DNA from: an uncultured Acidobacteriota bacterium | Lineage (GTDB): Bacteria; Acidobacteriota; JAQAZP01 | Direction: 5' to 3' | DNA length: 64,000 bases | Assembly: GCA_963836075.1 (NCBI GenBank) | Contig: CAWIIB010000009.1 | Coordinates: 416,001 to 480,000, forward strand | In this document: one piece after another, positions 16,605-45,073 of the stretch | Layout: each line of letters opens with the position of its first letter | Numbering within the stretch: position 1 is the first letter of the stretch | The notes under the pieces: model-generated | Told to the model about the DNA's origin: nothing | Database searches by the model: none | What the model saw: the letters and a program-made list of their open reading frames with translations, nothing else | Made by a program: the position numbers and the translations under genes

Positions 16605-16647
16605 TCATCCTCTCCGTCTCCTTCTCGTCGAGCTGGAGGGTCTCGTC
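16605..16647 (-). repeat. Degenerate copy of hydantoinase B 3' end (copy A)
   Basis: Reads DETLQLDEKETERM vs DEKTLQLDEEETERL at the end of 43337..45073. Confidence 0.75.
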
Positions 16648-16652
16648 AACGA

Positions 16653-19145
16653 TCAATCAGCCGTGTCGAGGACGGCCTGCCAGCCGGCGGCTTCTTCGGG
16701 CCGGCCAACAGACTCAGTGACCTCCACCAGCATCTCGAGCAGTTGGGCCATCTTGGGGTGCTCGGGCCCGAAGCGGGTGGACATGATCCGGTAGGCCTCT
16801 TCCAGGTCCGGCAGCGCCTCGGCAGGCCGGCCGAGCCGCAGGCGGCACTCTCCGGCAGAATGGAGGGCGAATCCGCGGCCGATGAAATCCGGTGAGACCT
16901 CCTCGGCGAGGATGGCGGCGCTCTCTGCGGCGAGTGGTTCGGCCTCGGCGTAGCGCTGCTGGGCTGCGTAGAACGCCGCCAGATTGATGACACCCGCCAC
17001 CTGTTCGGGGTGTCGATCGCCGAGCACCCGCCGGCCGGTCTCGACGTTTTCAATATAGTAGGGCTCAGCTTCGTCGAAGCGGCCCTGGTCCTTGAGGATG
17101 ATGCCGAGATTGTTCACCCCCACCTGGGTCTGCTGGTGGTCGTTCCCCAGGATCCTGCGCATGGTCTCGAGCGCCTCCCGGGTCACTTTCTCGGCCTCGG
17201 CGTGTCGGCGAGCCAGACGCAGCAGCCAGCCGTAATTCGTCATCACCGACAGCGTGTGCGGGTGCTCCGTTCCAAATCGCTTCTCCAGAGCGGGGATCAG
17301 CTCGAGATAGAGGGCCTCGCTGCGCTCGAAGTCGAGCTGGTCCCCGGCCACCTGGGCCATGCTGTTGAGCAGGTCCAGCGTGGTTTCGTCATCGGGGCCG
17401 AGCGAGGTCCGGGCGATCTCCAGAACCGGTGTGCCGAGCGCGTCCGCCTCCTCGAGGCGATTCTGGTAGAGCAGGGTCTCCACCAGCACCGTGGTGGTGT
17501 TTACCACGTCGGGGTGGTCCTCACCGAGGACCTGGCGCTGCTTCTCCAGCACCTCCCGCAGCTCGGATTCCGCGGTTTCCAGATCACCGAGGAAGTAGCG
17601 GGCCGTCCCCAGATCGCTCTGCGCCCGCAGGGTTGCGGGAGCGAGCGGGCCGGCCACCTCCCGGTACAGCTGGAGAGACCGTTCCGCGTGGCCGGGAACC
17701 AGATCGAATTCACCAAGGTCCCGGTAGGTCGCCGCCAGCACCCGGCGCATTTCGGCTTCCACATCGGGCTGGTCGGCCAGCTCGGCGCCGATGCGAATTG
17801 CGGCCTTGTCGAGGATCTCCCGCAACATGGTGGTGTCCCGGCCGAGGGCCACCGAGGGGCCGACGCCGGCCAGCATGCTCTCCAGGAGCGCGGCCACCTG
17901 TTCGCTCTTGGCCGCGGCGGCATGCGCCCGTTCAGCTTCGCGCTCAGCGCGGACATACATGACCGAGGAGACGGCCAGCGCCGCAACGAGGGCGAGCAGC
18001 GCAGTGGCCGCGGCGCCAACCCAGGCCCGGTTGCGGCCGGCGAACTTGCGGATCTGGTACAGGGCACTTGGCGGGCGGGCATTGATCGGCTGGGAGGAGA
18101 GATAGCGGTCGATGTCCTCGGCCAGCGCCGCCGCCGACTCGTAGCGCCGTGCCGGCTCCTTTTCCAGCGCCTTGCCGACGATGTTCTCCACGTCCAGGTC
18201 CAGGCGGCCGATGCCGCTCCAGCTCTGGCGCAGCGGCCGCGGCGGTTCCTCGCAGATCACTCGAATCGCTTCGGCCAGGGCGGCACGCACGGTTTCGTAT
18301 GGCCGTTGCCCGGCCACCAGCTCGTAGAGGATGACGCCCAGGGCGTAGATATCGGTGCGCACATCCACCGCATCGGCCTCTCCCCGCGCCTGCTCCGGAC
18401 TCATGTAGGGCAGGGTGCCCTTGATCATCCCCACTTCGGTGGCCATGGTGGCCAGCACGTCCTGGTCGGTGAACCGGGCCAGCCCGAAATCGAGGATCTT
18501 CACCATGGGCAGCGGTGTGGTCTGACCACTCCCCGAGTAGGTGGTCTGCTCGTCGGTCACCAGGATGTTGGTCGGTTTCAGGTCACGGTGAATCACTCCC
18601 CGCTGGTGGGCATAGTGCACGGCCTGACAGAGCCCGGCGAACAGCCGCAACCGCAGTTTCAACTCGTCCGCAGTCACCTGCGACGGTCGCTGGGCAACCC
18701 AGCGGTCAAGGGTCAGGCCCCGGACCAGCTCCATGGCGAAGAAGTCACGGCCGTCGGCGGTGTGGCCCGACTCGTAGATCGCGGCGATATTGGGATGCTT
18801 CAGCCGGCCCAGAGTCTCCACCTCGCGGAGGAACATGCGGGCGTGCAGATCGTCCACCAGGTGGTGGCGGTGCGTCACCTTGATCGCCACCCGGCGCCTG
18901 GGGTGCTGCTGCTCAGCTTCATAGACCATGCCCATGGCCCCCTCGCCGAGCAGGCCGAGGATGCGATACCCCTCAATGTTTTCAGGAAGAGGCTGCGCAC
19001 CTCGCGGTGGACGGGGCGCTGACCGGTCGGTGGCGGCCAGGGTTTCCAGCTCGCCTGGAGTCGAGGGCTGGTCCGTGGCAGCCATGGTTTCCAACTCGTC
19101 TGGGACCGGGGGCTGCTCTTCCGGCCTGTTATCCTTGGGGTTCAT
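16653..19145 (-). CDS. Hanks-type Ser/Thr protein kinase with TM helix and TPR repeats
   Basis: LGEGAMGMVY, VAIK, HRDLKPTN, DFG, GTLPYMSPE; TM segment; LGxDHPx repeats. Confidence 0.95.
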   Translation of the reverse strand: MNPKDNRPEEQPPVPDELETMAATDQPSTPGELETLAATDRSAPRPPRGAQPLPENIEGYRILGLLGEGAMGMVYEAEQQHPRRRVAIKVTHRHHLVDDLHARMFLREVETLGRLKHPNIAAIYESGHTADGRDFFAMELVRGLTLDRWVAQRPSQVTADELKLRLRLFAGLCQAVHYAHQRGVIHRDLKPTNILVTDEQTTYSGSGQTTPLPMVKILDFGLARFTDQDVLATMATEVGMIKGTLPYMSPEQARGEADAVDVRTDIYALGVILYELVAGQRPYETVRAALAEAIRVICEEPPRPLRQSWSGIGRLDLDVENIVGKALEKEPARRYESAAALAEDIDRYLSSQPINARPPSALYQIRKFAGRNRAWVGAAATALLALVAALAVSSVMYVRAEREAERAHAAAAKSEQVAALLESMLAGVGPSVALGRDTTMLREILDKAAIRIGAELADQPDVEAEMRRVLAATYRDLGEFDLVPGHAERSLQLYREVAGPLAPATLRAQSDLGTARYFLGDLETAESELREVLEKQRQVLGEDHPDVVNTTTVLVETLLYQNRLEEADALGTPVLEIARTSLGPDDETTLDLLNSMAQVAGDQLDFERSEALYLELIPALEKRFGTEHPHTLSVMTNYGWLLRLARRHAEAEKVTREALETMRRILGNDHQQTQVGVNNLGIILKDQGRFDEAEPYYIENVETGRRVLGDRHPEQVAGVINLAAFYAAQQRYAEAEPLAAESAAILAEEVSPDFIGRGFALHSAGECRLRLGRPAEALPDLEEAYRIMSTRFGPEHPKMAQLLEMLVEVTESVGRPEEAAGWQAVLDTAD

Positions 19146-19424
19146 CTGGTGATCCTTGTTGTCGCGTTACCCAATCCCGGCGTGGATGATGACCTGTCAT
19201 TATTTAAAAACATTGATCACCAAAGTCAAATCCGCAGTCCGGAGCGGAGGGGTACGTCCGCTCTGGTTGATTGGGCAGGTCTAACTGTGCAGCTAATGGT
19301 CCGGGCGGGGAATGGAACCTATTCGAGATTCCGTGGAGGCCAGGGGGTTGTCCGGCAAGGGGGCATCATAAGACGCGGAAAACCAGCGAAACCGGAGGGC
19401 ATTGACATGGTCAGAGGCCTGTTC

Positions 19425-19520
19425 CACCGGGAGGATGATGCCGTGCACCTCCTCGGCGACTTTCTCCGCCTGGCGCAGCTTCGAATAGCCCCGGCCTCCC
19501 CCGCCGCCGGCCAGGTCCTG
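19425..19520 (-). repeat. Highly degenerate remnant of hydantoinase B C-terminal region (copy B)
   Basis: Reads QDLAGGGGGRGYSKLRQAEKVAEEVHGII vs QEAGGGGGWGDPKKRPAARVAEEVRDGII. Confidence 0.65.
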
Positions 19521-19555: not shown

Positions 19556-19954
19556 TCACCGAAGCATTTCGAACAGATGATATCGTGCCGCCCGCCGATC
19601 GAAGGTGACGATTTTCTCGCAGCCGGCCGAATGTGCTGAACAAGCGATCAGCAGGTCCGGCAGGTCGACCTTCGAATCCCGTGCAACCCTGATAAACTGA
19701 CGAACAGCCGGTTGACTCTCGAACTCCAGGATTGGCATCAACAGCAGGTCATCCACGGCGTCCAGTATTTCCTCACGCCCGATATCGTACGCCGACTCCA
19801 ATGCCCGGATCGTCTGCAGTAGAACAAGGGTGGGGATATGAAAGGTCTCCCCGCCCTGCTCGGCGCGGGTGAACATTCGGTACACAGCCCTGGCTTGCTT
19901 CTCATCGTCTCTGACCAGGAATCGCACCAGCACATTCGTGTCCAGCGCCTTCAT
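19556..19954 (-). CDS. vapC: PIN-domain toxin (VapC family)
   Basis: [11 protein letters not shown]-terminus, DLLIA...IVTFD C-terminus; coupled to upstream antitoxin. Confidence 0.9.
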
Positions 19955-20199
19955 CTGCCGTCACCCCCGACTCCCCGCCGAACATGCTCGTCCATCTCCT
20001 CGATGGATACCGCCTTCCGGCCGGACCTGTGCAATCGTCCGAAAACATCATCCACCCGCCTGGTGACGGGCGTACACAGCACTCGGCCGTTCTCGTCGAG
20101 GATGAACTCCAGCTTGTCGCCGGAGTGGAGACCGAGTGCGTCCCGGATCGGTTTCGGGATGGTCACCTGCCCCTTCTTGGTCATTGTTGCCACGGCCAT
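19951..20199 (-). CDS. AbrB/MazE-family antitoxin
   Basis: [27 protein letters not shown]. Confidence 0.92.
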
Positions 20200-20366: not shown

Positions 20367-20430
20367 ACCCCGCAGCCGGGCGGTCTGCTCGCCGAGGGCC
20401 ACGCCGTAGGCTTCGCGGGCCTGGTCCAGG
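20367..20430 (-). repeat. Degenerate, internally deleted copy of hydantoinase B 3' end (copy C)
   Basis: ccacgccgtaggcttcgcgggcctggtc is identical to the intact gene; preceded by ccccgcagccg. Confidence 0.8.
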
Positions 20431-20464
20431 CCTCGACACACCGGCCCGACAATGAGGTTGTCCG

Positions 20465-20776
20465 CTACAGGTCGAGGGCAAAGATGACCGCCCGGCCGAC
20501 CTCCGCCATTTGCCTGGCGGACAGTTCAGTGATCCGGGATCCGATCTTTTTCCTGGAGACGGTCTGGAGGTGGTCGAGGTTGACGGCGCAGTCCCGTTTC
20601 ATTCCTTCGGCCTTGTCGAGGAAAACTTCGCTGGGGATATCCCGGATCGTGGTGGTGATCGGTGCAATGGTGACCTCACCGAGGTGTTCGATGATGGAGG
20701 TCCGGGTCAGAATAAGGACCGGACGTTTCTTGTCAGGGGATTTGAACCTGTACCAACGGATCTCACCCCTTTTCAT
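20465..20776 (-). CDS. mazF: PemK/MazF-family toxin
   Basis: MKRGEIRW...KKRPVLIL...VTIAPITT...NLDHLQTV. Confidence 0.92.
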   Translation of the reverse strand: MKRGEIRWYRFKSPDKKRPVLILTRTSIIEHLGEVTIAPITTTIRDIPSEVFLDKAEGMKRDCAVNLDHLQTVSRKKIGSRITELSARQMAEVGRAVIFALDL

Positions 20777-21006
20777 TCGTCCCCCCAATCCTGCTCATCC
20801 TCCCAGACCAGGAACTCATCACGAGCCACCGGGTATTTCTCGTATCCCTGCCGGTGCTTCAGCTCGAGCTGCTGCAGATTGAATTTGACGATGGCCTCAC
20901 GGAGGGCTTCGCGGGTGAAGGCCGACCTGGTGGTTTTCAACTTCCTGGCAATCCGGTCGACGGCTTCCACCAGTTCCTCATCGAGGGTCATCTGTACCGT
21001 TCTCAT
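20773..21006 (-). CDS. Ribbon-helix-helix (CopG-like) antitoxin
   Basis: MRTVQMTLDEELVEAVDRIA...TRSAFTREAL; overlaps toxin start. Confidence 0.88.
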   Translation of the reverse strand: MRTVQMTLDEELVEAVDRIARKLKTTRSAFTREALREAIVKFNLQQLELKHRQGYEKYPVARDEFLVWEDEQDWGDE

Positions 21007-21027
21007 CCTGCACCTCGAAAAATGATA

Positions 21028-21065
21028 TTGATATTTATAGCTATAGTAATAGCTATAAATATCAA
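21028..21065. promoter_or_regulatory. AT-rich perfect 17-bp inverted repeat, likely operator of the RHH-MazF operon
   Basis: ttgatatttatagctat-agta-atagctataaatatcaa, 21 bp upstream of the antitoxin ATG. Confidence 0.7.
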
Positions 21066-21067
21066 CG

Positions 21068-21523
21068 TCAAGCAGGATCCAATGCAAATGATTTTGAAGA
21101 TCGGAGGATGTTCTGTTCGCTCTGCTCAGCCCTGTCATCCATACCCTGTTCGTGAAGCGCTCCGATAAATGCGGCCACCATACGCCGGTTGGCGTACACG
21201 CAGCCCTTCGCCTCTTTGCAGTCGGTGCTCTTGATGAAGGTGTCGAGCGGCAGCGCGTTGCCCTCGCGCACCGCGAAACAGGCGTCGAACAGTTTCAGCT
21301 GAGCCTCGTGCACGGCGGGATCGAATTCGAGCATCGTCCTTACCATCAACGACCAGATGGGGGCAAGGTCCTCGATCCCCAAGGTTTCTTTGTGCGGAGT
21401 CCAGGTGTAGCTCCAAGTCTTGCCCGGGTCGAGGTTCAACCTGCCGGCCCGCCGGTTGCTGTAAAAGGCGCCCCCGGCCAGCAGCACGTTGATAGACGAT
21501 TTGCAGATCATCTGCACATCCAC
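21068..21523 (-). CDS. Hypothetical protein or gene fragment
   Basis: 151 aa ORF filling the gap; no family recognised. Confidence 0.3.
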   Translation of the reverse strand: MDVQMICKSSINVLLAGGAFYSNRRAGRLNLDPGKTWSYTWTPHKETLGIEDLAPIWSLMVRTMLEFDPAVHEAQLKLFDACFAVREGNALPLDTFIKSTDCKEAKGCVYANRRMVAAFIGALHEQGMDDRAEQSEQNILRSSKSFALDPA

Positions 21524-21568
21524 CGTGTTTAAGCCGGCGAGATTTCCTCAGAAATCACGGCTGTTCAA

Positions 21569-22498
21569 TTACGGAGTTGCAGCGGTAACCGTGCAGGCGA
21601 CACTGTCCGTGTCACCGGCAGCCGAATAGGGCGGCTGATTGTATGGAGCAGGTGTAACATCCTCGACGACCAACTGGAAAAGATTGTCGCCGATCACCAT
21701 ACCAATCGCCGGAATGTTTTGGAGCCAGGAGGTGGAATAGCTCGCTCCTGACGGCAGGTTTGTAAAACCAGCCCGCCAATTCGGATACGATGTACCGCTG
21801 GCAAGGTCAACATCGATGCGGGCCGCAAAGCGCCGGGACTGTTCGAGGTACAGGTTTTCCAGATTGATCGTCAGTTGAGTGCTGAACGGAACAATACCTG
21901 TAGATGGTTCGCAATTCAGGGTGGCCCGCACCGTTGATGTCTTGGTCACGGTTGCTTCCAGGCCGGTATTCCCGAAGGCGTACCCGCCATAAACGACGAA
22001 GTCCAGCGACGAGCCGGCAGCTGTCGATACATCCAGATTGAAGGCACCGGCATCGGTTGTCTGCCAGAGCCATTCGGATCCTTGTCTTATCCCAACCTGC
22101 ATAAGTCCGGAATCACCGGCGAGGAACTGACCGACGACGCTGAAAGAACCGGACGCAGGCGCGGTCCAGCGAACCACAGACGGGGCATGGTTGGCGCGCG
22201 GATGCAGTGCGACGTCTCCTGGTTGAATTCCATGAATTTCGCCCCCGCTGTCGTTTCTCCACACTTCGGGAGGGTGGGCTTCCGGATACCACACCGGGCA
22301 GGTCCCATACACGATTTCGGTGCTGGTAAACGGTGTGAAGTAAGAAAAGTCGATGGGCATTTCACCATAGGTCCAGACACCATTCGGATTTCCATTATCG
22401 ATACTGAAATCCGCGCATACATCGTGGATCATGTCGGCTTTCACAGGCATCACCAACAAAACGGACAATACAACTACGACCGCTGCCGGCTTGTTCAT
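21569..22498 (-). CDS. Secreted protein with conserved C-terminal PAPYNQPPY domain
   Basis: Signal peptide ending VKA, beta-rich domain (DFSIDNGNPNGVWTYG), C-terminal domain at 21569-21934; RBS aggag. Confidence 0.85.
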   Translation of the reverse strand: MNKPAAVVVVLSVLLVMPVKADMIHDVCADFSIDNGNPNGVWTYGEMPIDFSYFTPFTSTEIVYGTCPVWYPEAHPPEVWRNDSGGEIHGIQPGDVALHPRANHAPSVVRWTAPASGSFSVVGQFLAGDSGLMQVGIRQGSEWLWQTTDAGAFNLDVSTAAGSSLDFVVYGGYAFGNTGLEATVTKTSTVRATLNCEPSTGIVPFSTQLTINLENLYLEQSRRFAARIDVDLASGTSYPNWRAGFTNLPSGASYSTSWLQNIPAIGMVIGDNLFQLVVEDVTPAPYNQPPYSAAGDTDSVACTVTAATP

Positions 22499-22915
22499 GA
22501 GGGACTCCTTCCTTTTTGCGAATCGTGCATCGTACTGGTTCGGGAACTATCATCAGGTTCAATCAATGGGGACGGGGATCGTCCAACCACCGGAAGCGGT
22601 CGCCGGAGCCGCCCCTCCCGCGGAAGTTCCCGACGATTCGAATCATTCGTCTACTCAGTAACGCGATGTTGAGATGGAATTCACGACAGGGGAATGCAGG
22701 TGTTTCCCGATGATTGACACGAAAAAGGGCAAAGGCTTGTACCGCGGCCCTTGGTGGCCGCGGATTTCAGCAATTTCTTAATCCCGCTGGCTGGCCACTC
22801 CCTCCGCATCATGGTGAAACTCATGTCGACTCTCTCTCGGTCTCCCCCTCAGGAACGGCCGTCCGTTCAAAGCTTGTATAATGAGGGATCATCCTTGATG
22901 GAAAATAATCCCTGA

Positions 22916-23500
22916 ATGTTCGATGGGGGATACAAGATTTTGGCAGCGACTCGTTCTACTGAATGGAAGGCCACGGTGGAGGCGCTCTATCGCAAGCACC
23001 ACCGGCTGCTGATCAGCAAGGCCTGGCAGTCCCTGAGGGACAAGAACCGGGTGGTGGACCTGGTTCAACAGGTGTTCACCAACCTGCTGGCCGCTGATCG
23101 AAATTTGGCTGGCAACGGCGAGGCGGAAAAATACCTCTTCACCGCCTTCCGCAACCTGCTGGTGGACCAGATCCGCCGGGGCAGCCGTTGGAAATACAGC
23201 TCGATCGAGGATGTCAATCCAAGCCGGGTGGCCTCCGACGCGCACCAGGAGGAGGAACTGATCAGCGAGCGGATGAGCGGTCGGGAACTGCCGCTGCCCC
23301 CGAAGCAGAAACGGGTCTTCGAAATGGCCTATTTCGAAGGGAAGAAGGACCGGGAAATTGCCGACGAACTGAAAATCAACATCCACACCCTTCAGCAGAG
23401 CCTGGTGCGCTCGCGACGGATGCTGGAGGCAATCCTGGTGGAGGAGCGCGGCATGAGCCGCGAGGAAGCGAGACGGCTCTTCTCACGCAAGAAATCGTGA
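22916..23500 (+). CDS. ECF sigma-70 factor
   Basis: Region 2 DLVQQVF...YLFTAFRNLLVDQIRR; region 4 LPPKQKRVFEMAYFEG...EIADEL. Confidence 0.88.
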   Translation: MFDGGYKILAATRSTEWKATVEALYRKHHRLLISKAWQSLRDKNRVVDLVQQVFTNLLAADRNLAGNGEAEKYLFTAFRNLLVDQIRRGSRWKYSSIEDVNPSRVASDAHQEEELISERMSGRELPLPPKQKRVFEMAYFEGKKDREIADELKINIHTLQQSLVRSRRMLEAILVEERGMSREEARRLFSRKKS

Positions 23501-23560
23501 ACCGCTGAAGAGCGCCGTGGCGCGGACGGTGGCACCAGCACACTGAGGACGATCAGGACA

Positions 23561-24298: not shown

Positions 24299-24363
24299 GC
24301 CGTTGTCCCGGCAAGGCCACAAGAAGGGGATGATGAACCTCGGTTGCGGTGATGAATCCACTT

Positions 24364-33107: not shown

Positions 33108-33192
33108 TGTTCTCGATGGAGCGTGCCGCCAGTTGCCTGTTGGCGACCTCGTACTGCTCGCGACGCGACCAGGCACGGGACATTCGCTCTCT

Positions 33193-35215: not shown

Positions 35216-35279
35216 CGCGGTAGAAATCGTTAGGTCGCCTCCACCGCTGAGCGGCAGAGGCCGGTGGAGATTCGGCGCT

Positions 35280-35432
35280 TCAGCGGCTCGCCGCAGTCAC
35301 CGAGGAGACGAGCCCGTCGAGGGTGCCGGCGATCTCTTCGGCCAGCGCCAGCGAGATGGCGTTGCGGCGTCCGGGATCGTTGAGGGTGACCACGGCCACG
35401 CGGTTGTGAGTTTCGATGCGGAGCAGGTTCAT
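35280..35432 (-). pseudogene. Enoyl-CoA hydratase/isomerase N-terminal fragment
   Basis: MNLLRIETHNRVAVVTLNDPGRRNAISLALAEEI..., stop after 50 aa; strong RBS ggaggtg. Confidence 0.7.
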
Positions 35433-35690
35433 TCGTTCACCTCCCTCGGTGCCGTCTTCCGGTCCATCAGCAGTTTATCGGAAAACAGTGGCCGGGGGGA
35501 ACGCCGAAAAAAGGCTCCACGCTCTCTCGGTCCGGATATCGAAGGGGACTGCAGGAGCATCATTGACCCCTGAACAGGTAATCTCTATAATTTTTATATA
35601 TTATTTCGAGCTACGTTTCATGAATCGTCCGGTTTCCCGGTTGACAGCTCCCGTTCGGTGCTGCTGTCGATCGCAGAAGGGTTGTCCGCA

Positions 35691-38370
35691 ATGGCTCAAT
35701 GCGGCTCATGCAAAGCGGAACTCGCAGACAGCGCAATGATATGCCTGAACTGCGGCCACCCGGTGGACGAGGCGGATCTGGTGCAGCGTTCCGACCCCAC
35801 GGCCACTGTCGGCTCGTCGGCCTCGTCCTCCTCCGCCTCCGAGACCGAGGTGCGATTTGCCCCCGGTACGCTGCTGGCCGATCGATACCGTATCGTCGGC
35901 CGTCTCGGCAAGGGCGGGATGGGTGAGGTCTACCGTGCCGACGACATGAAGCTCGGCCAGCAGGTGGCGTTGAAATTCCTGCCCGAGCGATTCAGGGAGG
36001 AACCGTCCCTCCTGACCCGTTTTCTCCACGAGGTGAAAATCGCCCGGCAGATTTCCCATCCGAGCGTGTGCCGGGTCTATGATGTCTTCGAGTACGAGGA
36101 CCAGCACTTCCTCTCAATGGAATATGTTGATGGCGAGGACCTCCGTTCACTGCTCCGGCGGATAGGTCGACTATCCGAAGACAAGGCACTGCAGATCGCA
36201 CGGCAGCTTTGCGCCGGGTTGGCGGCGGCCCATGACAAGGGTGTGCTGCACCGGGACCTCAAGCCGGCCAACATCATGCTGGACGGCAGCGGCCGGGTGC
36301 GTATCACCGATTTCGGCCTCGCCGCCATGGCCGGTGAAATACAGAAGAGCGATCTCAAATCCGGCACTCCGGCTTACATGGCGCCCGAACAGCGGGCGGG
36401 CCGGGAGGTCTCGATCGCCAGCGACATCTACACTCTCGGCCTGGTGCTGTTCGAACTGTTCACCGGCAAGCCTGCCTTCGCGGCGGCCACCCGGACCGAA
36501 CTGGAAAAGAAGCAGCTGCAGGATGTGACCACCCCGTCCAGCCTGGTGCGGAGTATCGATCCGGCCGTGGAGCGGGTCATCCTGGCCTGCCTCGCCCGGC
36601 ATCCGGCCGAACGGCCTTCGTCGGTCCTGGCGGTGGCCGCGGCGCTGCCCGGCGGGGATCCGCTCGGTGAAGCGCTGGCTGCCGGTGAGACGCCGTCCCC
36701 CGAGATGGTCGCCGCCTCGATGGTCCGGGGCGGCCTGCGCCCGCTCTTGGCCTGGGCCACGCTGGCCGGCATTGTCGCCTGTGCCGTGATCCTGTTCCTG
36801 CTCGCCGGGAAAGGGAAGGTGACCTCCCATGCGCCGCTGACCAAGGCCCCCCAGGTCCTGATTGACGAGGCACAGAGCATCCTGGCCGGTGCCGGTCTGA
36901 ATACTGAACCGGCCGACTACCTCTGGGGATACATCCGGAACGACCAGGCACTCGATCATTTCGAGGAACTGAAAAGCGCCGATCGCTGGGACGGTCTCGG
37001 TGAGCGGGAGCGCTCGAGCCTTTTCTTCTTCTACCGCCAGAGCCCGGTGCTGCTCGAACCGCTCAGTGTGGTTTCGAACCGGATGAACCTGGAGGATCCG
37101 CCGACGACGACGCCGGGCATGGCGACGGTGAGGCTGGATACCGAAGGCCGGCTGGTCCGCATGGAGATCCTGCCGCCGGAGAAGGATGAAGGGGACGATG
37201 AGCCGCCCGGCAAACCGGACTGGGCCCCGCTTTTCGCCGCGGCCGGGATCGACATGGAGACACTGCAGCCGGTGGAGCCGGTTTGGAATCCACCCCTGTA
37301 CTGCGACTACCGGGCCGCCTGGGAGCTGGCCGGGGCCTCACCGGGGATCAGGGTAGAAGCCGCCTCCTATCGCGGAAAACCAATCTACTTCAGGGTCGTG
37401 GCGCCGTGGGAGAAGCCGTTCGAACCTGCCGCCCTGGAGAAGCCGCGCGGGGAGCGGCTCGCCCAGACCGGTTTCATCCTGCTGGTCACGGTGGTGCTGG
37501 TCGGCGGCTTCCTGCTGGCCCGACGGAACCTTCGTCTTGGCAGGAGCGATCTTCGCGGTTCCTACCGCATCGCCACCGTCTTCGTCCTGATCCACATGCT
37601 GGCATGGCTGCTCTACGCCAAGCACCTGGCGTCCATCGACCTCGCCTTCTGGGGCCTGATCGCCACCCTGGCCCAGACCTTCTTCGAAGCGCTGCTGATC
37701 TACACCTTCTACCTCGCCCTGGAACCGTACATTCGCCGCCGCTGGCCCGACACCATCATCTCCTGGACCCGGGCGCTCTCCGGCCGGTTTCGTGACCCGC
37801 TGGTGGGCCGGGACGTCATGTTCGGCTGCGGCCTCGGGCTGGCCGCAGCGCTGCTCTGGAAGGTCGGTCAGCTGGCGCCGCCGTATTTCGGCAAGATCCC
37901 GCGCCGGCCCGACTGGGTGACGCTCAACGCGCTCAACGGGAGCCGTTTCGCCGTGGGGGAACTGCTCGACAGTCTCGTCCACGCCGTCGTGCCGGCGATG
38001 GCGCTGCTGATCATCCTGCTGCTCGTCTCGCTGCTGGTGAAGCGATTCTGGGTCACCGGGATCATCGTGACCCTGCTGGTCTTGCTGCTCAACCTGCCCG
38101 AGATCGAGTACCTGGTTCGACCTGTTCGGGATCGCGGTGACCATGGGCCTGGTGGTCTTCAGCCTGGTCCGTCTCGGCCTGCTCTCCGCGACGGTCATCT
38201 TCGGCGTATCGGCAGCGGTGAACGAACTGGTGATCACCTCCGACCTGACCCACTGGTGGGCCACCGGCACCATCGTCACCCTCGGTGCCACTCTCGCCCT
38301 CGCTTTCTATGGCTTTTACATCGCCCTGGCCGGCCGGCCGATGATCGGCTCCGACTGGCTGGAGGGATAG
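35691..38370 (+). CDS. Ser/Thr protein kinase with N-terminal zinc ribbon and C-terminal multi-TM domain (frameshift at ~38120)
   Basis: CGSC...CLNC, LGKGGMGEVY, HRDLKPAN, DFG, GTPAYMAPE; TM array continues in ORF 38137..38370. Confidence 0.9.
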
Positions 38371-38399
38371 CAGACCGAACGACACTCCCGGGGGATACC

Positions 38400-38666
38400 A
38401 TGAAAATACTGAGAACCGTGCTGGCAACGCTGTCCCTGCTGGCGTCCACCTTCGGTCTGGCGGCCACATCCCCGGCCGACAACGCCGGCCTCGCTTCCCG
38501 CATCGCCGCGACGGCCTCCGACCGGAAAGCCGGTTTCATCGAGGCACGTCGCTGGTTCCACCGGTATTCGGAACTGTCGAACCATGAGTTCGGAACCGCC
38601 GGCCAGGTGAGGGCGAGACGATTTAAACAACAGTGCGGATGGGTTTTTTCTGGAGGTACAGGCTGA
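38400..38666 (+). pseudogene. M20 amidohydrolase N-terminal fragment
   Basis: Signal peptide then RRWFHRYSELSNHEFGTA (cf. RRxxHxxPELSxxExxT), then similarity lost. Confidence 0.6.
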
Positions 38667-38803
38667 TGAGAGACGAGGCGGGCGCGCACAGCCCCTGGCT
38701 TCGGATATTCCGCGGTGCGATGGAGGTGCAGCGCGAGGTCACGGTGCGGGAGACGGCCCGCTGACCACTGTTCCCGGCGCTGCGTACGCGTGGAAAAAAA
38801 TCG

Positions 38804-38845
38804 AAAAATGGGGACTGGCACGCCTTGGCGCCTGTCCCCATTTTT
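38804..38845. repeat. REP-like hairpin / bidirectional terminator
   Basis: aaaaatggggactggcacgccttggcgcctgtccccattttt; near-identical inverted copy at ~42514. Confidence 0.75.
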
Positions 38846-38895
38846 ATTTAAGTGCCTTTCGGATCTTCTCCGGGGTGATTGCATCACCCCCGATT

Positions 38896-39288
38896 TCAGA
38901 CGAGGACGATCGCTGCCCGGTGGCCGGCGGCCGAGGCGAGACGGGCGTCCCTGGTGATCAGAGGCGCTTCCAGGACTTCCGCCAGGGCCAGATGGACGGC
39001 GTCGTATGCGGTGGCGTTGTTCCGCAGCTCCCAGACCCGGAACAGAAACAGGTCGTGGGGATAGCGGGTCAACGGCAGGTCGAGCAGGTCCTCGAGCGCC
39101 TGGCGGCCCCGGGACGGTTTGAGTTCACCCGCGAGAGAATAGCGCCGGAGCACCTGGGCCACCTCGAGGTCGAGGAGGTGCGGGGCGTGAAGCGTCTCGC
39201 CGTCGGCGAAGATGCGCTCGCTGATCCGCTCCGCCGCCGGGGTGTTCAGCAGCACCTCTAAAACCGCGGAAGCATCGACGACAATCAC
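38896..39288 (-). CDS. vapC: PIN-domain toxin (VapC family)
   Basis: MIVVDASAVLE, APHLLDLEV, TAYDAVHLALAE, LITRD. Confidence 0.93.
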   Translation of the reverse strand: MIVVDASAVLEVLLNTPAAERISERIFADGETLHAPHLLDLEVAQVLRRYSLAGELKPSRGRQALEDLLDLPLTRYPHDLFLFRVWELRNNATAYDAVHLALAEVLEAPLITRDARLASAAGHRAAIVLV

Positions 39289-39515
39289 CGCCCGTCCCTT
39301 TCGTCCCTGACTGCCCGGGCCGGCGGCACGCCGGTGATGACGGCTTTGCGGCCGCGCAGGCGAAGTCTCAGTTCACGCGGGGATGGACGTTCCATCAGGC
39401 GCTCCACCTCGCCGAGGAGGTAGTCGGAGAGGGGCAGACCCTCGAGCGCCGCCCTGGCTTTGAGCAGGCGGTGCAGCTCGTCCGGCACGTTTCGAATTTG
39501 GATCATCTTGGACAT
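39285..39515 (-). CDS. FitA-like RHH antitoxin
   Basis: MSKMIQIRNVPDELHRLLKARAA...LSDYLL; upstream ttgaca...cacatgtg...tgtcaa palindromic region. Confidence 0.88.
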   Translation of the reverse strand: MSKMIQIRNVPDELHRLLKARAALEGLPLSDYLLGEVERLMERPSPRELRLRLRGRKAVITGVPPARAVRDERDGR

Positions 39516-39885
39516 GTTGACAACATATTCACATGTGATCCACATGTCAAGCGGAGGTCCTCAGGGACGACATCAGCCGGCCATTTTCTCCCCGGGAATT
39601 CCCGTGGGATGGCAGCCGGCTGGGCTGGAGAGGAAGGGGGCGGTGGCACAGCCGTGGCATACGGTCCGAAAGCGGGCAGGCAGGGTTGTATGCGCGTACC
39701 GCCAGGCAGGGAGATCCCCGCAATCGGTGCGATTTCGGACTTGCCAAATTAAACTATAAACCATAAATTTGTATGTGATCTATCAGATGCAGGCATTCTA
39801 ATCATCAAAAGATACTGTTCGTTGTTGCTCACTGCCATAAGGTGGCCTTGAATATCGATCCTGCCGCCGCAGGGAGGCCTCGTCA

Positions 39886-42477
39886 ATGGGTATACGATCA
39901 CGGTTGGGCATCTGCTTTCACCTGCTGGCGATGGCGCTTGCGTTGTCCACCTCGGCGGAGGCAAGGCTGTTCGATGCGGCGATCGCCTTACCGGTCGAAA
40001 GCCGAGCGTTTGCTGTCGATGACCTGGATGGGGACGGGATTCAGGATCTTGCGGTGTTCCGTGAATGGACATATGACGAGGAACTTGTCGGGATTTGTTT
40101 CGGCCGGGGCGACGGCACATTTCAATATCCCGTGGATTATTCCATCGGCGAAGCAGGGCCCATCTCTGGAACTTCGATGATCACCGATGACCTGGACCAG
40201 GACGGTGACTCTGATGTGGCCGTCGTGACATACCGCGTATACGACACGAGGAGCAATATCTGGGTGCTGCTGAACAACGGCGACGGCACTTTTGCCGTTG
40301 CCGGTCACTACCGGCTTTTCACTGAAGCCAGGATGGTGAAATCCCTCGACCTCGACGGCGACGGACATCGTGACCTTGCGTTGGCCCACTCGGATGGCGG
40401 TGCGTCGGGGCAGGAAGGGCGGCTGTCGGTCCTCTTTGGCCGGGGAGATGGTACTTTTAAGAAGGCCATAGCTTACGACCTCGATTTCGAAGCATTGAAC
40501 TTTGCCGTTGGCGATTTCAACGGTGACGGTGCACAGGACCTCGTGCTCAATGAGTTCCATAACGACATGATCATGGTGCTGCTGGGCAATGGCGACGGCA
40601 CATTCCAAGGCGGTGTCGAGTACCAGGTGGGTGATCATCCCTGGGGCGTGGCTGCCGGCGACCTGAACGCTGACGGCTGGACTGACCTGGTCGCGGCCAA
40701 TCGAAGTGGCGACACGGTTTCAGTGCTGATCGGGCTTGGGGACGGGAGTTTTCTACCCGCCGAACATATTCCTGTTGCCGAGAACCCGTGGTCCATCGAA
40801 GTCTTCGATATCGACAATGATCAGATACCGGACCTGATCACAACGTGTAGCCATGAAAGCGGTGGTGATCTTTCGTTTTTAAAGGGCGAGGGTGATGGTA
40901 CATTCCAGGAAGGTGTGCTGGTGGAAACCGGTAGTTCAAATATCTCCTTTTGCGTTGCGGACTGTGACGGCGACGGCAATCCGGATTTTGTTGTGGACAA
41001 CAATGTTTTTCTTGTCGGTGGAGACGTGTCTGTCATCCTGGGCCATGGTGACGGCACTTTCGCTACAGCGTCTTCCAACAATGCATTTCCGGGTCACTGT
41101 ACAGGCGATGTCGGTGACGTGAATGCCGACGGCAATCCCGACGTGGTCCTTCCGGCTGAAGACGTGGGCAAGGTAGATTACCAGATCATTGTTTTGCTGG
41201 GCAGGGGGGACGGGACATTCGGCAGCAAAGTCGGTTCCGTGGCCGGCAATGGGTTCAGTTCATTGGTCGTCGAAGATTTTAATCGAGACGGTTATTCCGA
41301 CATTGTTGCGTGCTTCAGGTACGATCCCTACCTAACGGTTCTGCTGGGCCAGCGCGACGGCCGAGTACAGGAGATCGCGGAAATCGAGATTCCTGACGAG
41401 CCGCTATCCCCGATCATCACCGATGATCTGGACGTTGACGGCAACTTCGATCTGATCGTGCGGACGTATTCCGATTACTTTGTACTCCTGGGCCATGGAG
41501 ACGGATCCTTTGAGCCGGCATCGGCGCTGGGGTTGGGTACATATAGGGGAACTTGCGATTTTGGCGACCTGAACCATGATGGAAACCCTGACCTGGTCCT
41601 GGTCAATCACAGTGGCGACAGCGTTTCGGTGATGATGGGGCACGGCGACGGCACGTTCGCCGATGAAGCGAACTACAGCGTGTTTGCTCCTGAATCCGTG
41701 GCCATCGGCGATCTGGATGAAGACGGGAACCCCGATCTGGCCGTGTCATGTGAATACACGACCCTGGGGTTCTTGGTTGGTAACGGAGACGGTTCGTTCC
41801 AGGACGCGGTGGAACTGGAATATCCCGACGTTGCGAACCCGGAGATGATCGATCACGTCGGTGATGTTGATCTTGATGGACACCTCGATCTGGTAATTCG
41901 CTGCTCCAATTGGGTCGCGGTTCTGCTGGGCGACGGGGACGGCTCGTTCCGGCCATTTGTATATGGCATAGAGAATAGTGACACTGTCGAGTCCATGGCC
42001 ATGATTGATCTGGATAATGACGATGATCTCGACCTGGTTGTTTCACGAGGATGTTCTTCCTGGAAGATCTCGGTGCTGATCAACAATACGATGAGCCGGA
42101 CCATCAACGGCGACTACACGATATCTCCGCTTGCCGGTACGCTGCCCTTCGAGACGAGCCACCAGGTCTACCTGAGAAACATGCTCCATGGCCGCGATGC
42201 GACACATACCCGCACGGCATCGGTGGCCATCGACGTCGAGATCGGCAGCGGCGCCTGGTTCAGCAACTGGCGGGCGGGGTACACCAATCTGTCGCCGAAC
42301 GAGGTCCTCTTCCGGAACTGGCCCAACCAGTTCCCTGCCGGCCCCACCCTTGTGGGCACGAACAGTTTCCATTTCCGGGTGATGGACACCACGCCGGCGC
42401 CATACAACCAGCCGCCCTACCCGCCGTCCGGGGATGCGGCGACACGGGTGAGGACGGTTATCGCGACAATACCCTGA
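39886..42477 (+). CDS. Secreted FG-GAP/VCBS repeat protein with C-terminal PAPYNQPPY domain
   Basis: Signal peptide ending AEA; many DxDGDGxxDL / LGxGDGTF repeats; C-terminal domain at 42100-42477. Confidence 0.9.
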   Translation: MGIRSRLGICFHLLAMALALSTSAEARLFDAAIALPVESRAFAVDDLDGDGIQDLAVFREWTYDEELVGICFGRGDGTFQYPVDYSIGEAGPISGTSMITDDLDQDGDSDVAVVTYRVYDTRSNIWVLLNNGDGTFAVAGHYRLFTEARMVKSLDLDGDGHRDLALAHSDGGASGQEGRLSVLFGRGDGTFKKAIAYDLDFEALNFAVGDFNGDGAQDLVLNEFHNDMIMVLLGNGDGTFQGGVEYQVGDHPWGVAAGDLNADGWTDLVAANRSGDTVSVLIGLGDGSFLPAEHIPVAENPWSIEVFDIDNDQIPDLITTCSHESGGDLSFLKGEGDGTFQEGVLVETGSSNISFCVADCDGDGNPDFVVDNNVFLVGGDVSVILGHGDGTFATASSNNAFPGHCTGDVGDVNADGNPDVVLPAEDVGKVDYQIIVLLGRGDGTFGSKVGSVAGNGFSSLVVEDFNRDGYSDIVACFRYDPYLTVLLGQRDGRVQEIAEIEIPDEPLSPIITDDLDVDGNFDLIVRTYSDYFVLLGHGDGSFEPASALGLGTYRGTCDFGDLNHDGNPDLVLVNHSGDSVSVMMGHGDGTFADEANYSVFAPESVAIGDLDEDGNPDLAVSCEYTTLGFLVGNGDGSFQDAVELEYPDVANPEMIDHVGDVDLDGHLDLVIRCSNWVAVLLGDGDGSFRPFVYGIENSDTVESMAMIDLDNDDDLDLVVSRGCSSWKISVLINNTMSRTINGDYTISPLAGTLPFETSHQVYLRNMLHGRDATHTRTASVAIDVEIGSGAWFSNWRAGYTNLSPNEVLFRNWPNQFPAGPTLVGTNSFHFRVMDTTPAPYNQPPYPPSGDAATRVRTVIATIP

Positions 42478-42513
42478 AGGCTGTGGGAGGGGCAGGCACC
42501 TGGCTGCTAGGAT

Positions 42514-42598
42514 AAAAATGGGGACGGGCACCAAGGCATGCCAGTCCCCATTTTTTCCCGTTCGCATCAAGAGGTGACAGGGTGCCAGTCACCTTTTC
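42514..42598. repeat. Two REP-like hairpins
   Basis: aaaatggggacgggcaccaaggcatgccagtccccatttt, then aggtgacagggtgccagtcacct. Confidence 0.7.
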
Positions 42599-42700
42599 CT
42601 TCTTCTTCTCCCTCAGCGACTTCAGTATCTTCTCCGGGGTGATCGGCAGGTCCTTGATCCAGACGCCGGTGGCTCCCGCGATGGCGTGAGCCACCGACCC
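42590..42700 (-). pseudogene. C-terminal remnant of a xanthine dehydrogenase-family Mo subunit
   Basis: VAHAIAGATGVWIKDLPITPEKILKSL, cf. LANAVHDATGIRFRRLPLTPERVL in 3713..6035. Confidence 0.7.
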
Positions 42701-42760
42701 AGGATGGGCAGGTGTTAGACGTGCCTTCCGGGTGACGATTTCGTCAACCGCGGTTTCCAG

Positions 42761-42976
42761 CTACTTGGCGATGGTGAGTCCCCGCCCCTTTGGTTCCGGG
42801 ACGGGCCTACCGTTCTGATTGGCGGTATCGATCCAGGGCGCTACGGCCTTTTTGGCATTCCCCAAAGCTTCCTCCTGGGTCTCACCATGAGCCGCACAAC
42901 CGGGAAGTTCGGGCACTTCCGCCACGAAACAGCGGTCCTCGATACTCCAGAAGATGTTGATCTCGTACTTGTTCAT
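42761..42976 (-). CDS. hicB: HicB-family antitoxin
   Basis: YEINIFWS.ED..FVAEVPELPGCAAHGETQEEAL. Confidence 0.92.
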   Translation of the reverse strand: MNKYEINIFWSIEDRCFVAEVPELPGCAAHGETQEEALGNAKKAVAPWIDTANQNGRPVPEPKGRGLTIAK

Positions 42977-43233
42977 CGGGGATCCTCGTCGAGGTTGTAC
43001 TTGAGGATGACCATTCGAACCTGCTTGACCTGATACGGTTTAGCGTTACCGCCGGTTGCCTGAAGATTGATCAGTTCCTCGATGCCTTCTCTCCAGAAGA
43101 TGTGGTGGCTGCCCCTGCTCCTGGAACGAAAACCAAGGCGTTTCAGGAGGGAGCAGATGTCTTTGAATCTTATGGACGAGTCGGTCCGCTCCGGCCGCCG
43201 GGGCCGGCAGATGCTCTTCGTCTCCTGGCCCAT
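42973..43233 (-). CDS. hicA: HicA-family toxin
   Basis: IRFKDICSLLKRLGF...RGSHHIF...AKPYQVKQV. Confidence 0.88.
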   Translation of the reverse strand: MGQETKSICRPRRPERTDSSIRFKDICSLLKRLGFRSRSRGSHHIFWREGIEELINLQATGGNAKPYQVKQVRMVILKYNLDEDPR

Positions 43234-43336
43234 GCAGGCCAGGCTGAGCAAGATCAGGGCCGGATGGCGGAAGTGTCAATCTGCCGGGTTTTCTGACCGC
43301 AGTTGGAAACCGGGGTTGTCGTCGATGATATACGTT

Positions 43337-45073
43337 TTACGCCCCCCGCAGCCGCTCCGTCTCTTCCTCGTCAAGCTGGAGGGTCTTCTCGTCCAGCACC
43401 ACGCCGTAGGCTTCGCGGGCCTGGTCGAGGGAGATGATGCCGTCGCGTACCTCCTCGGCCACCCTGGCTGCCGGGCGCTTCTTCGGGTCGCCCCAGCCAC
43501 CACCGCCGCCGGCTTCCTGCACATACAGCGTGCCGGGGGGCACCCCGCGCACCAGGTCCTTGGTGGTGCAGGTGTAGACCTCGCCGTCCGGCTCGTGCAG
43601 CTCGATGTAATTGAGCGTGCCCTCGCCGCCGCCAAAGAGGCCGAAGGCCGGCTCGATGTCGCCGTCGCCAAAGGTCACCAGCTGCACCGGCCCGCCGCCG
43701 AAGCGGATGCGGGTCTCCACGCCGAGGCCGCCGCGCCACTGGCCGGGGCCGGCCGAGTCGGTGAGCAGCTCGTGCTTCTCCAGCAGGTGCGGCGTCTGCT
43801 GCTCGAACATCTCGTAGTCCTGGTCCAGCACGCCGCCCGAGGCGTCGATCATGCCGATGTGGTCGTAGCCGTCGGTGCCCTTCATCGCCCCCGAGCCGCC
43901 CTTGAGGCCCATGAAGCAGATGTCGACGTAGGTGTCGTTCTTCCGGGTGTCGAGACCGGTGGTCAGCGAACAGAGCAGCTGGTTCCAGCCGGCGGTGACC
44001 CGGTCGGGGATCACCGGGGCCAGGGCGCGCATGATGGCGTCGGCGTTGGGCGGGCAGAGGTGGTTGCCGAAGGTGGTGGCCGCCGGGTACGCGGCATTGA
44101 GGATCGTCCCCTCGGGGATGATTATGGAGATCGGCTCCACCATCCCCTCGTTGTGCGGGATGTCGGGGTTGACCATCTGCAGGAAGGTGAGGATGGTGGC
44201 CGAGGCCGAGGAGGTGTAGGTGCCGTTGACGAAGCCGTCGGTCTGGGGGTCGGTGCCCGAATAGTCGAAGACGATGGAGCGGTCCTTGACCTCGATGGTG
44301 ACCTTGATCTGGTAGGTGCTGCCCGGGGTTCGGCCGTCGAAGTAAACGGTGGCCTCGCCGGAGTATTTGCCGTTGGGGATCCGCTCGATCTCGGCTTCCA
44401 TCATCTTCTTTGTGGAGGCGAAGATGTGCTGTTTGTGGGCCTCGAAGGTCTCCAGGCCGTATTTCTGCACCAGTTTCTGCAGCCGCCGCTCACCCACCAC
44501 GCAGGCGCCGATCTCGGCCCGCATGTCCTCCTCGACGATGTCGAGACGGATGTTGGCGAAGATCAGGTTCCAGACGTCCTTGCGCAGCCACCCCTTCTCG
44601 TAGACCTTCACCGGCGGGATTCTGAGCGCCTCCTGCCAGACCTCGGTGGCGTTGGGGTTGTAGCCGCCTCGTACCGCGCCGCCGATGTCGGCCTGGTGGC
44701 CCTTGGTGGCCGCCCAGCCGATCAGCGTCTCCTCGAGAAAGATCGGCTTGAACACCGCCACGTCGTTGTTCTGGTTGCCGAGGGAGAAGACGTCGTTGTG
44801 CATGATCACGTCACCGGGATAGATCTCGTCGCCGTAGTAATCGATGATGTACTTGCAGACCGGGGCCAGGGAGAAGGAGAGGATCGGCAGGTTCTCGGTC
44901 TGCTCCAGCATCCGGCCCTCGGCATCGTAGAGGCCGGTGACAAAGTCCCGGGCCTCGCAGAGGATCGGCGAACGGGTGGTCTTGGTCATCGAAACCGACA
45001 TCTCGTCGGTGATCGACTTGAAGGCCCGGGTGAGCACCGAGGCGAGGATGGGGTCGATGTTAGCTTCAGCCAT
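43337..45073 (-). CDS. Hydantoinase B / 5-oxoprolinase family subunit
   Basis: SPILCEARDF, PGDVIMHND, GHQADIGG, DSAGPGQWRGG, AGGGGGWGDP. Confidence 0.95.
   Translation of the reverse strand: MAEANIDPILASVLTRAFKSITDEMSVSMTKTTRSPILCEARDFVTGLYDAEGRMLEQTENLPILSFSLAPVCKYIIDYYGDEIYPGDVIMHNDVFSLGNQNNDVAVFKPIFLEETLIGWAATKGHQADIGGAVRGGYNPNATEVWQEALRIPPVKVYEKGWLRKDVWNLIFANIRLDIVEEDMRAEIGACVVGERRLQKLVQKYGLETFEAHKQHIFASTKKMMEAEIERIPNGKYSGEATVYFDGRTPGSTYQIKVTIEVKDRSIVFDYSGTDPQTDGFVNGTYTSSASATILTFLQMVNPDIPHNEGMVEPISIIIPEGTILNAAYPAATTFGNHLCPPNADAIMRALAPVIPDRVTAGWNQLLCSLTTGLDTRKNDTYVDICFMGLKGGSGAMKGTDGYDHIGMIDASGGVLDQDYEMFEQQTPHLLEKHELLTDSAGPGQWRGGLGVETRIRFGGGPVQLVTFGDGDIEPAFGLFGGGEGTLNYIELHEPDGEVYTCTTKDLVRGVPPGTLYVQEAGGGGGWGDPKKRPAARVAEEVRDGIISLDQAREAYGVVLDEKTLQLDEEETERLRGA

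Follow-up and report, generated by a model that had tools for sequence, protein, structure and literature searches.

We describe a genomic island of 32.5 kb in a 64,000-nucleotide stretch of an Acidobacteriota-like genome (assembly GCA_963836075.1, contig CAWIIB010000009.1, positions 416,001 to 480,000; the whole stretch is called the window here and numbered from its first nucleotide). The island (10813-43336) is lineage-specific and splits a conserved hyuA-hyuB-acd-B12-mutase operon exactly at the stop codon of hyuB, the gene of a hydantoinase B-type protein. Five partial copies of the hyuB 3′ end lie within it, and we consider it very probable that the tract was built serially at this gene end. 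As the driver we tentatively favor, at somewhat below an even chance, a rolling-circle insertion sequence (IS) of the IS91 family, a degraded copy of which lies next to hyuB, in combination with homology-anchored re-entry.

The hyuB gene (43337-45073, minus strand) is intact and encodes a 578-residue protein that matches Pfam Hydantoinase_B (E = 5e-148) and is 94% identical to its counterpart in the closest relative, an Acidobacteriota metagenome-assembled genome (L001); its 3′ end is the sequence that recurs in the island. On the upstream side lies hyuA (45082-47190, minus strand), coding for a hydantoinase/oxoprolinase A-type subunit (Pfam Hydantoinase_A, Hydant_A_N, and Hydant_A_C; 91% identical to L001). 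The remainder of the operon (2514-10812, minus strand) is found on the far side of the island and comprises, by Pfam, the acyl-CoA dehydrogenase gene acd (9673-10812) and genes for a B12-binding subunit (9253-9660), a mutase (7377-8996), flavoprotein, 2Fe-2S, and molybdopterin subunits, and a CoA-transferase. A HyuB search of genome contigs yielded 80 related loci, and each of the downstream operon genes is matched in 32-50 of them. Among the 64 loci with at least 1.5 kb of sequence downstream of hyuB, 38 have the start of acd no more than 600 bp past the hyuB end, mostly at a distance of 5-35 bp, and 42 have acd or the gene for the B12-binding subunit or the mutase within 3 kb. The corresponding hyuB-acd distance in the window is 32.5 kb, and the island open reading frames (ORFs) picked for comparison have a GC content at third codon positions (GC3) of 0.60-0.86, versus 0.93 for hyuB, 0.90 for hyuA, and 0.92 for acd. 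Both results bear out the proposal, made in a first-pass annotation of the sequence, that DNA had been inserted at the hyuB end. That annotation had let the tract begin at 16605, at the most distal hyuB copy; because the conserved operon places acd right after hyuB, the island in fact begins further out, at acd (10813). A tRNA scan of the whole window found no tRNA gene, and Rfam found no family in 12000-48000.

A blastn search of the entire window with region 43000-45300 as the query (word size 7) returned five plus/plus matches to the hyuB end, all other hits having E ≥ 0.01, and tblastn confirmed the residue ranges of all five remnants. The copy nearest to hyuB, F5 (33200-33392, minus strand), consists of residues 250-284 joined to residues 544-577 and ends at the stop codon. 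Its terminal part (33200-33301) is 94.1% identical to hyuB over 102 bp, its upstream part (33296-33382) is 100% identical over 87 bp to the internal hyuB segment 44221-44307 (E = 3.5e-40 for each), and Pfam recognizes Hydantoinase_B on 33060-33404. F4 (31601-31779, minus strand) comprises the last ~105 bp of hyuB (residues 544-576) with a frameshift, followed by 71 bp of the sequence that flanks hyuB beyond its stop codon (82.3% over 181 bp, E = 1e-46). Further out are F3 (20374-20430, minus strand; approximately residues 549-567; 84.2%, E = 2e-11), F2 (19410-19511, minus strand; residues 521-554 at 53% amino acid identity, with the last 24 codons missing; blastn match 19416-19511, 75.8%, E = 2e-11), and F1 (16599-16674, minus strand; residues 553-577 with an in-frame stop; blastn match 16599-16643, 84.4%, E = 1.3e-7). 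All five are on the same strand as hyuB and downstream of the intact gene, as the first-pass annotation had reported with coordinates that agree to within ~10 bp, and match lengths and identities confirm its observation that, compared with the two proximal copies (F4 and F5), the three distal ones (F1, F2, and F3) are reduced in length or have diverged further. A hidden Markov model (HMM) built from 77 HyuB proteins found no further remnant in the six-frame translation of the window; this model detected F5 and F2 clearly and F4 and F3 weakly, and it missed F1.

In gene orientation, the region thus reads hyuB, a 103-bp flank, 9.8 kb, F5, a 1.4-kb SPFH/RHH cassette, F4 with 71 bp of flank, 11 kb, F3, a 0.86-kb antitoxin-PIN cassette, F2, a Ser/Thr kinase gene, F1, 5.8 kb, and acd. 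Each of the five maps to the last ~60 codons of hyuB and reaches into the final 175 nt of the 1737-bp gene, an arrangement with a probability of ~1e-4 for random pieces of a decayed gene, and their 3′ bias is therefore regarded as real. Since F2 corresponds to hyuB 43513-43418 and F1 to hyuB 43410-43342, these two do not overlap, and no core is common to all five scars; a shared core could have been lost through erosion.

The copies begin at different points of hyuB, their 5′ ends lying at 44069 for the downstream copy in L001, ~44307 for F5, 43446 for F4, ~43430 for F3, ~43513 for F2, and ~43410 for F1. Two classes can be distinguished at the 3′ side: in F5, F1, and the intact L001 gene the stop codon is followed by unrelated DNA, and in the intact hyuB of the window, F4 (71 bp), and the truncated L001 copy (~30 bp) the sequence runs on into the post-stop flank. 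F5 equals a longer copy from which 777 bp were deleted between two ACGGCA hexamers, a 6-bp microhomology that is the only one seen; the 5′ junctions of the L001 copy, F5, and F4 have none. The internal junction of F5 (43443) falls almost at the 5′ boundary of F4 (43446), where the best-conserved C-terminal motif (DGIISLDQAREAYGV) begins. Within F5, there are no mismatches to hyuB in the 87 bp upstream of the junction versus six in the 102 bp at the end (Fisher p = 0.03). This difference suggests that the last ~100 bp of the present hyuB may be of outside origin, the end of the intact gene having been replaced by incoming DNA.

The flank (43234-43336, minus strand) extends from the hyuB stop to the start codon of an IS91-family transposase gene. 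Behind F4, 71 bp of it are repeated, and ~30 bp follow the truncated hyuB copy of L001; because F4 holds this stretch of the same post-stop sequence, the truncated copy (hyuB′) and the flank must have been copied together, as a single unit. The flank was not found in the other 79 loci, and neither the 293 bp upstream of acd nor the 250-bp tail of a further locus (L002) contains a match to it. Inspection by eye shows an imperfect palindrome in it, in which one difference between the window copy and F4 looks compensatory. Folding of the flank and its copies gave stabilities no better than those of shuffled sequences (z = 0.7 to 2.0), and promoter and terminator predictions in 42900-43400 were no more numerous than shuffles predict.

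The transposase itself came to light when Pfam was run on 146 pieces from a six-frame translation of unannotated parts of the island: a single relevant hit, Y2_Tnp (PF04986; E = 1.6e-4), covers minus-strand positions 34491-35279. The fragment is 80-88% identical to full-length 456-residue proteins with PF14319 and PF04986, and 10 of its 25 protein matches with E ≤ 0.001 are 455-459 residues long. One such full-length relative (P0003) scores 153.5 bits against the NCBIfam model "IS91 family transposase" (cutoff 125) and 151.9 bits against the ISCR clade Ia model (cutoff 925). In the window, the gene is present as three pieces, all co-oriented with hyuB. Its start (43144-43233, minus strand) covers residues 1-30 in tblastn with P0002 and P0003 and HMM positions 1-21; the start codon at 43233 lies 103 bp past the hyuB stop on the same strand, and the gene points away from hyuB. 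The rest is a pseudogene (34832-35280, minus strand) with residues 133-254 at 35280-34913, frameshifted, residues 388-418 at 34924-34832, and an internal deletion (tblastn and HMM). Between the start and the pseudogene, the gene is interrupted by 7.9 kb of cargo, to whose nearest gene, hicA, the start is fused in frame: the first 18 codons of the chimeric hicA ORF (MGQETKSICRPRRPERTD) are those of the IS91-family transposase and continue in frame into the HicA domain. The toxin gene may hence now be using the transposase start codon and upstream region. IS91-driven recombination had been one of the mechanisms listed in the first-pass annotation, and the pseudogene abutting the hyuB stop lends it support. 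That annotation had also seen no integrase, and none came to light: no integrase, resolvase, or other transposase is present in the 66 annotated ORFs of the window (Pfam), the 146 six-frame island pieces, or 11 ORFs of L001.

L001 provides an independent view of the same spot. It is collinear with the window through hyuA-hyuB (L001 124-4077 versus window 47292-43337, 89.7% identity), and a 991-bp insert then follows straight at the hyuB stop. On the strand opposite to hyuB, this insert encodes a DUF6036 nucleotidyltransferase and, in an overlapping small ORF, its partner; only the nucleotidyltransferase has a family hit. After the insert comes a 732-bp duplicate of the hyuB 3′ end (5069-5800), 96.2% identical to L001's own intact copy, and 63 bp past this truncated copy lie IS91 transposase residues 126-174. 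Because L001 also has transposase residues beyond its truncated copy, the hyuB-flank-IS91 arrangement is common to both lineages. The cargo beyond the duplicate is unrelated to that of the window, except for a surface-protein C-terminal domain described below, and there is no acd within 10 kb downstream. L001 is the only one of the 80 loci with a downstream duplicate of its own hyuB end. A search for short HyuB C-terminal proteins in a 5.8-billion-protein set gave 501 matches with E ≤ 1e-5, mostly genes cut at contig ends, and among the 120 of these that were listed, only the L001 copy (P0028) and a protein from a 955-bp contig (P0027) are at least 90% identical. Of the 21 other loci without acd beside hyuB, 14 have an AMP-binding ligase gene directly after it, and the 58 ORFs scanned within 3 kb downstream include no recombinase or transposase. 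Given that the L001 cargo differs and that acd adjoins hyuB in most other loci, the hyuB-acd spot varies in this lineage and is constant in most others; with different cargo and its own hyuB 3′ duplicate in L001, it is a lineage-specific accretion hotspot.

Two features of the wider set of loci may be recorded here. Four loci (L014, L018, L020, and L041) share a conserved ORF of ~170 residues in a ~490-bp gap between hyuB and acd, which those lineages may have as an additional member of the operon. HyuB also retains 72-77% identity across Planctomycetota, Desulfobacterota, Gemmatimonadota, Pseudomonadota, and bins labeled as a Thermoplasmata archaeon (L005, L007, L011, L058, and others); such conservation is unusually high, and wide transfer of the operon or mislabeled bins may also account for it.

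How the island could have grown is suggested by the behavior of IS91-family elements, which are described as transposing by a rolling circle from oriIS to terIS, with terIS on the transposase-start side and with termination at terIS failing in 1-10% of events, so that adjacent DNA is co-mobilized (PMC13181058). In the window, the transposase-start side of the IS, which is that of terIS in this account (PMC13181058), faces the hyuB end, the segment that would be co-mobilized. For ISCR1, it has been proposed that aberrant replication yields circles of cargo, a truncated 3′ conserved segment (3′CS), and ISCR1, which homologous recombination across the 3′CS then rescues, giving the order 3′CS, ISCR1, cargo, 3′CS (PMC6834847, PMC3575428). 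By analogy, the island would have been built in several rounds, each detectable one duplicating a 3′ piece of hyuB while older copies were pushed distally and decayed there. Termination would fail at the left end of the IS (one-ended transposition), and the adjacent hyuB end would be copied out along with the IS and DNA picked up earlier. The resulting circle (cargo-hyuB′-IS) would re-enter through homologous recombination within hyuB, producing hyuB-IS-cargo-hyuB′, and the IS copies would later be degraded by deletions and insertions. One-ended transposition and homologous re-entry are the steps that we infer. Such a model would predict 3′-anchored copies with ragged 5′ ends, their co-orientation, an attached IS-side flank, and the order hyuB-IS-cargo-hyuB′. 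All four are seen in the newest unit (hyuB, IS91, 1.4 kb, F5) and some of them in F4 and L001, both of which retain the IS-side flank, and it is on these grounds that the IS91-assisted, homology-anchored route is ranked first. A broader and more doubtful proposal is that the IS91-family element at the hyuB stop has acted as a chromosomal ISCR-like capture platform in an environmental Acidobacteriota lineage, each round of one-ended transposition and homologous re-entry adding cargo, often toxin-antitoxin cassettes, and leaving a hyuB′ scar.

Several observations weigh against the IS91-assisted route. Only one set of IS91 remnants is detectable in the window, no IS sequence lies beside F1, F2, F3, or F5, and F1, F2, and F3 are without any trace of the IS. 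The flank is only a putative left (terIS-side) end of the IS, and a GTTC/CTTG tetranucleotide occurs inconsistently at the hyuB′ 5′ boundaries, being 2 nt off in F5 (GTTC) and absent from L001 and F4. The cassette between F5 and F4 and that of L001 directly follow the hyuB stop with no IS between, so the model needs precise IS loss twice. Aligning the window with both L001 copies gave a mixed mismatch pattern, without a single crossover point between the two copies. In a genome from another phylum (Planctomycetaceae; L013), the 781-bp hyuB-acd spacer holds an MNT/HepT toxin-antitoxin pair (NTP_transf_2 and HepT-like, 11700-12489) with neither an IS nor a hyuB duplicate. Finally, the newest 7.9 kb entered the transposase gene, or replaced part of it, without a hyuB duplicate; hence not every addition used the hyuB-duplicating route. 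The idea of repeated capture at the hyuB end, as put forward on first pass, does not extend to this latest block.

If the IS were a mere passenger, the same arrays could arise by homology-anchored recombination, in which an incoming 3′ part of hyuB with new genes attached pairs homologously on one side and is joined illegitimately on the other, by homology-facilitated illegitimate recombination or Campbell-type insertion of a circle, and the resident end is displaced downstream. We consider this explanation rather unlikely, though the cassettes abutting the stop codon without an IS in L001 and between F5 and F4 fit it, as do the ragged 5′ ends, recent homology tracts as long as 732 bp (L001) and ≥970 bp (the precursor of F5), cargo down to a 1-kb toxin-antitoxin-like pair, and the contrast in F5 between 100% identity upstream and 94% at the end. 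It also calls for no dedicated recombinase gene, in keeping with the searches of window ORFs, island pieces, and L001 ORFs, and a sequential-displacement model of this kind has been put forward for other arrays (PMC5361080). It leaves unexplained, however, the joint duplication of the IS-side flank and hyuB′ in F4 and the position of several independent junctions exactly at the stop codon, and the three best-preserved 5′ junctions are without microhomology. Homology-facilitated illegitimate recombination is, moreover, given as orders of magnitude rarer than ordinary recombination (PMC5361080).

Less probable still is site-specific tandem accretion, by an integrase that targets the conserved hyuB end, has since decayed or is encoded elsewhere, and belongs to elements that each bring a replacement end. 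An intact gene with its old ends piling up downstream in one orientation is the classic signature of this process in the description of ICE accretion (PMC5704250), several copies terminate at the stop codon, and the near coincidence of the F4 boundary (43446) and the F5 junction (43443) at a conserved motif could mark a target; the F5 junction is, however, accounted for by the 6-bp microhomology deletion. Neither the 32.5-kb island nor the ORFs scanned in 10 kb of L001 yielded an integrase or a fragment of one, and the 58 ORFs of the 21 acd-less loci include no recombinase. The 732-bp and ≥970-bp repeats start at different 5′ ends, F1 and F2 share no sequence, and no segment is common to the five scars, so the analogy to integrase insertion at tRNA-like sites drawn on first pass finds no support. 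That no horizontal capture took place at all, the remnants being decayed tandem duplications of hyuB or assembly artifacts caused by repeats, is highly improbable. The 87-bp exact repeat (33296-33382 and 44221-44307) could mislead a short-read assembler, and the source is apparently an uncultured lineage whose best match is itself a metagenome-assembled genome. Against this stand the 3′ bias of the remnants, intervening genes that are foreign to the operon and lower in GC3, and the divergence of the other four remnants, which at 76-84% identity to hyuB are too different to be misjoined. An assembler would not create a 6-bp overlap like the one at the F5 junction, and L001, an independent assembly, has the same kind of structure.

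The preferred, IS91-assisted route finds its nearest parallel in the complex class 1 integrons of ISCR1, where the IS91-family transposase gene likewise lies directly downstream of, and co-oriented with, a conserved segment, here hyuB. The order conserved segment, IS, variable cargo, truncated duplicate (PMC6834847) corresponds to hyuB, IS91, 1.4 kb, and F5, and these arrays, too, are described as being lengthened by successive rounds (PMC6834847, PMC3575428). With ISCR1, the anchor is a plasmid integron and the cargo is resistance genes; the island is anchored on the chromosome of an Acidobacteriota-like genome, at the end of a catabolic gene, and its cargo consists of toxin-antitoxin pairs, kinases, and surface proteins. 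The IS, furthermore, is a pseudogene whose left end is only putative, most scars have no adjoining IS, and the full-length relative P0003 is above the general IS91 cutoff but far below that of ISCR clade Ia. Accretion of integrative and conjugative elements (ICEs) and cis-mobilizable elements (CIMEs) of the ICESt1 type also leaves the target gene intact, displaced ends as co-oriented direct repeats between modules, and decayed elements (PMC5704250); it differs in that the island has no integrase that could be found and no common core, and in that its repeats are long and variable in length. The type VI effector-immunity arrays of Vibrio cholerae and the Rhs orphan arrays, as portrayed in PMC5361080, share with the island a constant upstream gene as the homology anchor, the lack of a dedicated recombinase, and old 3′ ends that are shifted downstream with their companion genes at each addition. 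In contrast to those arrays, the displaced ends here are copies of one enzyme C terminus without an alternative function, the companions are unrelated accessory genes, and an IS91 element sits at the junction.

The cargo block closest to hyuB (35281-43143, 7.9 kb) lies between two parts of the transposase gene and, by Pfam, contains hicAB, an FG-GAP protein gene (39886-42477, plus strand), vapBC (38896-39545, minus strand), and a Ser/Thr kinase gene (35658-38666, plus strand). The hicA/hicB pair (42761-43251, minus strand) consists of the chimeric hicA (42973-43251) and hicB (42761-42976), matching HicA_toxin and HicB_lk_antitox. Two copies of a 44-bp palindromic element, 93% identical, occur after the kinase gene (38804-38847, plus strand) and after the FG-GAP gene (42512-42555, minus strand); the element, a GC-rich hairpin with a run of A on one side and a run of T on the other, resembles a bidirectional terminator. 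A 1.4-kb segment (33393-34831) separates the IS91 remnant from F5 and contains a 330-residue ORF (33711-34703, plus strand) with no match in Pfam, NCBIfam, or PADLOC. The cassette between F5 and F4 (31691-33104, plus strand, opposite to hyuB) encodes an SPFH/Band 7 protein (31691-32878; Pfam Band_7) and a small ribbon-helix-helix (RHH) protein (32856-33104; RHH_5/Arc).

The 11-kb module between F4 and F3 (20431-31600; Pfam and NCBIfam) contains genes for two beta-propeller-like surface proteins (28310-31487, minus strand), a CHAT-TPR protein (24364-28356, minus strand), an ECF sigma factor (22916-23500, plus strand) with a candidate anti-sigma factor (23561-24298, plus strand), a 309-residue protein (21569-22498, minus strand), and an RHH-MazF pair (20465-21138, minus strand). 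Exactly between F3 and F2 lies a pair of an AbrB/MazE-type antitoxin and a PIN toxin (19556-20199, minus strand; Pfam MazE_antitoxin and PIN), and between F2 and F1 a gene for a Ser/Thr kinase with TPR repeats (16653-19145, minus strand; Pfam Pkinase and TPR_12). The distal part of the island (10813-16598) carries, by Pfam, genes for a sulfatase (11107-12555, minus strand), a HEAT-repeat protein (12792-15338, plus strand), and a radical SAM/SPASM protein (15119-16597, plus strand). The sulfatase has a SPASM maturase-like enzyme as its neighbor, which suggests that the two form a sulfatase-maturation pair. There is a 220-bp overlap between the HEAT-repeat and radical SAM ORFs, so one of their start codons is probably wrong. 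The genes of this distal module are unlinked to hyuB in the other loci, except for a weak sulfatase match (33%) in L061.

Taken by domain content, the predicted type II toxin-antitoxin pairs are HicA/HicB, PIN with a FitA-like RHH protein, PIN with a MazE-type protein, and PemK/MazF with an RHH protein (Pfam), and toxin-antitoxin cassettes so predicted are frequent cargo. PADLOC matches in the cargo are only generic (kinase, radical SAM, and HEAT/TPR) and give no ground for proposing a defense system. Three otherwise different large island proteins share a C-terminal domain of ~120-148 residues (21572-22000, 28313-28675, and 42094-42474; 41-58% identity), which recurs in two large proteins of L001 (8555-8920 and 10945-11388) and has no Pfam match; it may be a sorting or anchoring domain. 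Perfect-centre palindromes are present at 1862-1939, between convergent genes (78 bp, 85% self-complementary), and at 21028-21065, upstream of the RHH-MazF pair (38 bp, 89%), the latter of which may be an operator. At the edge of the window, ORFs in 61978-63956, including one for a mechanosensitive channel, have a GC3 of 0.67-0.69 versus ~0.9 in their neighbors and may form a second patch of foreign DNA.

Most genomic islands are attributed to integrases at tRNA genes. The island described here contrasts with these in having grown inside a conserved operon, with scars of a protein-gene end beside a rolling-circle transposon. Accretion arrays with displaced gene ends, partial duplications of the ISCR type, and sequential displacement have each been described before; what is unusual is their combination on a chromosome, in the catabolic operon of an uncultured Acidobacteriota-like lineage, with no integrase found and with frequent toxin-antitoxin cargo. 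Both halves of the operon have been kept despite the 32.5-kb split, which raises the question of how the downstream half is transcribed. If the IS91 route is true, a form of capture known from ISCR1 and clinical resistance integrons would also shape the chromosomes of soil and sediment bacteria, and 3′-end scars beside IS91 remnants would provide a search signature for such events. ISCR-type accretion would then be a general island builder outside antibiotic-resistance contexts, with gene-end scars as its footprint.

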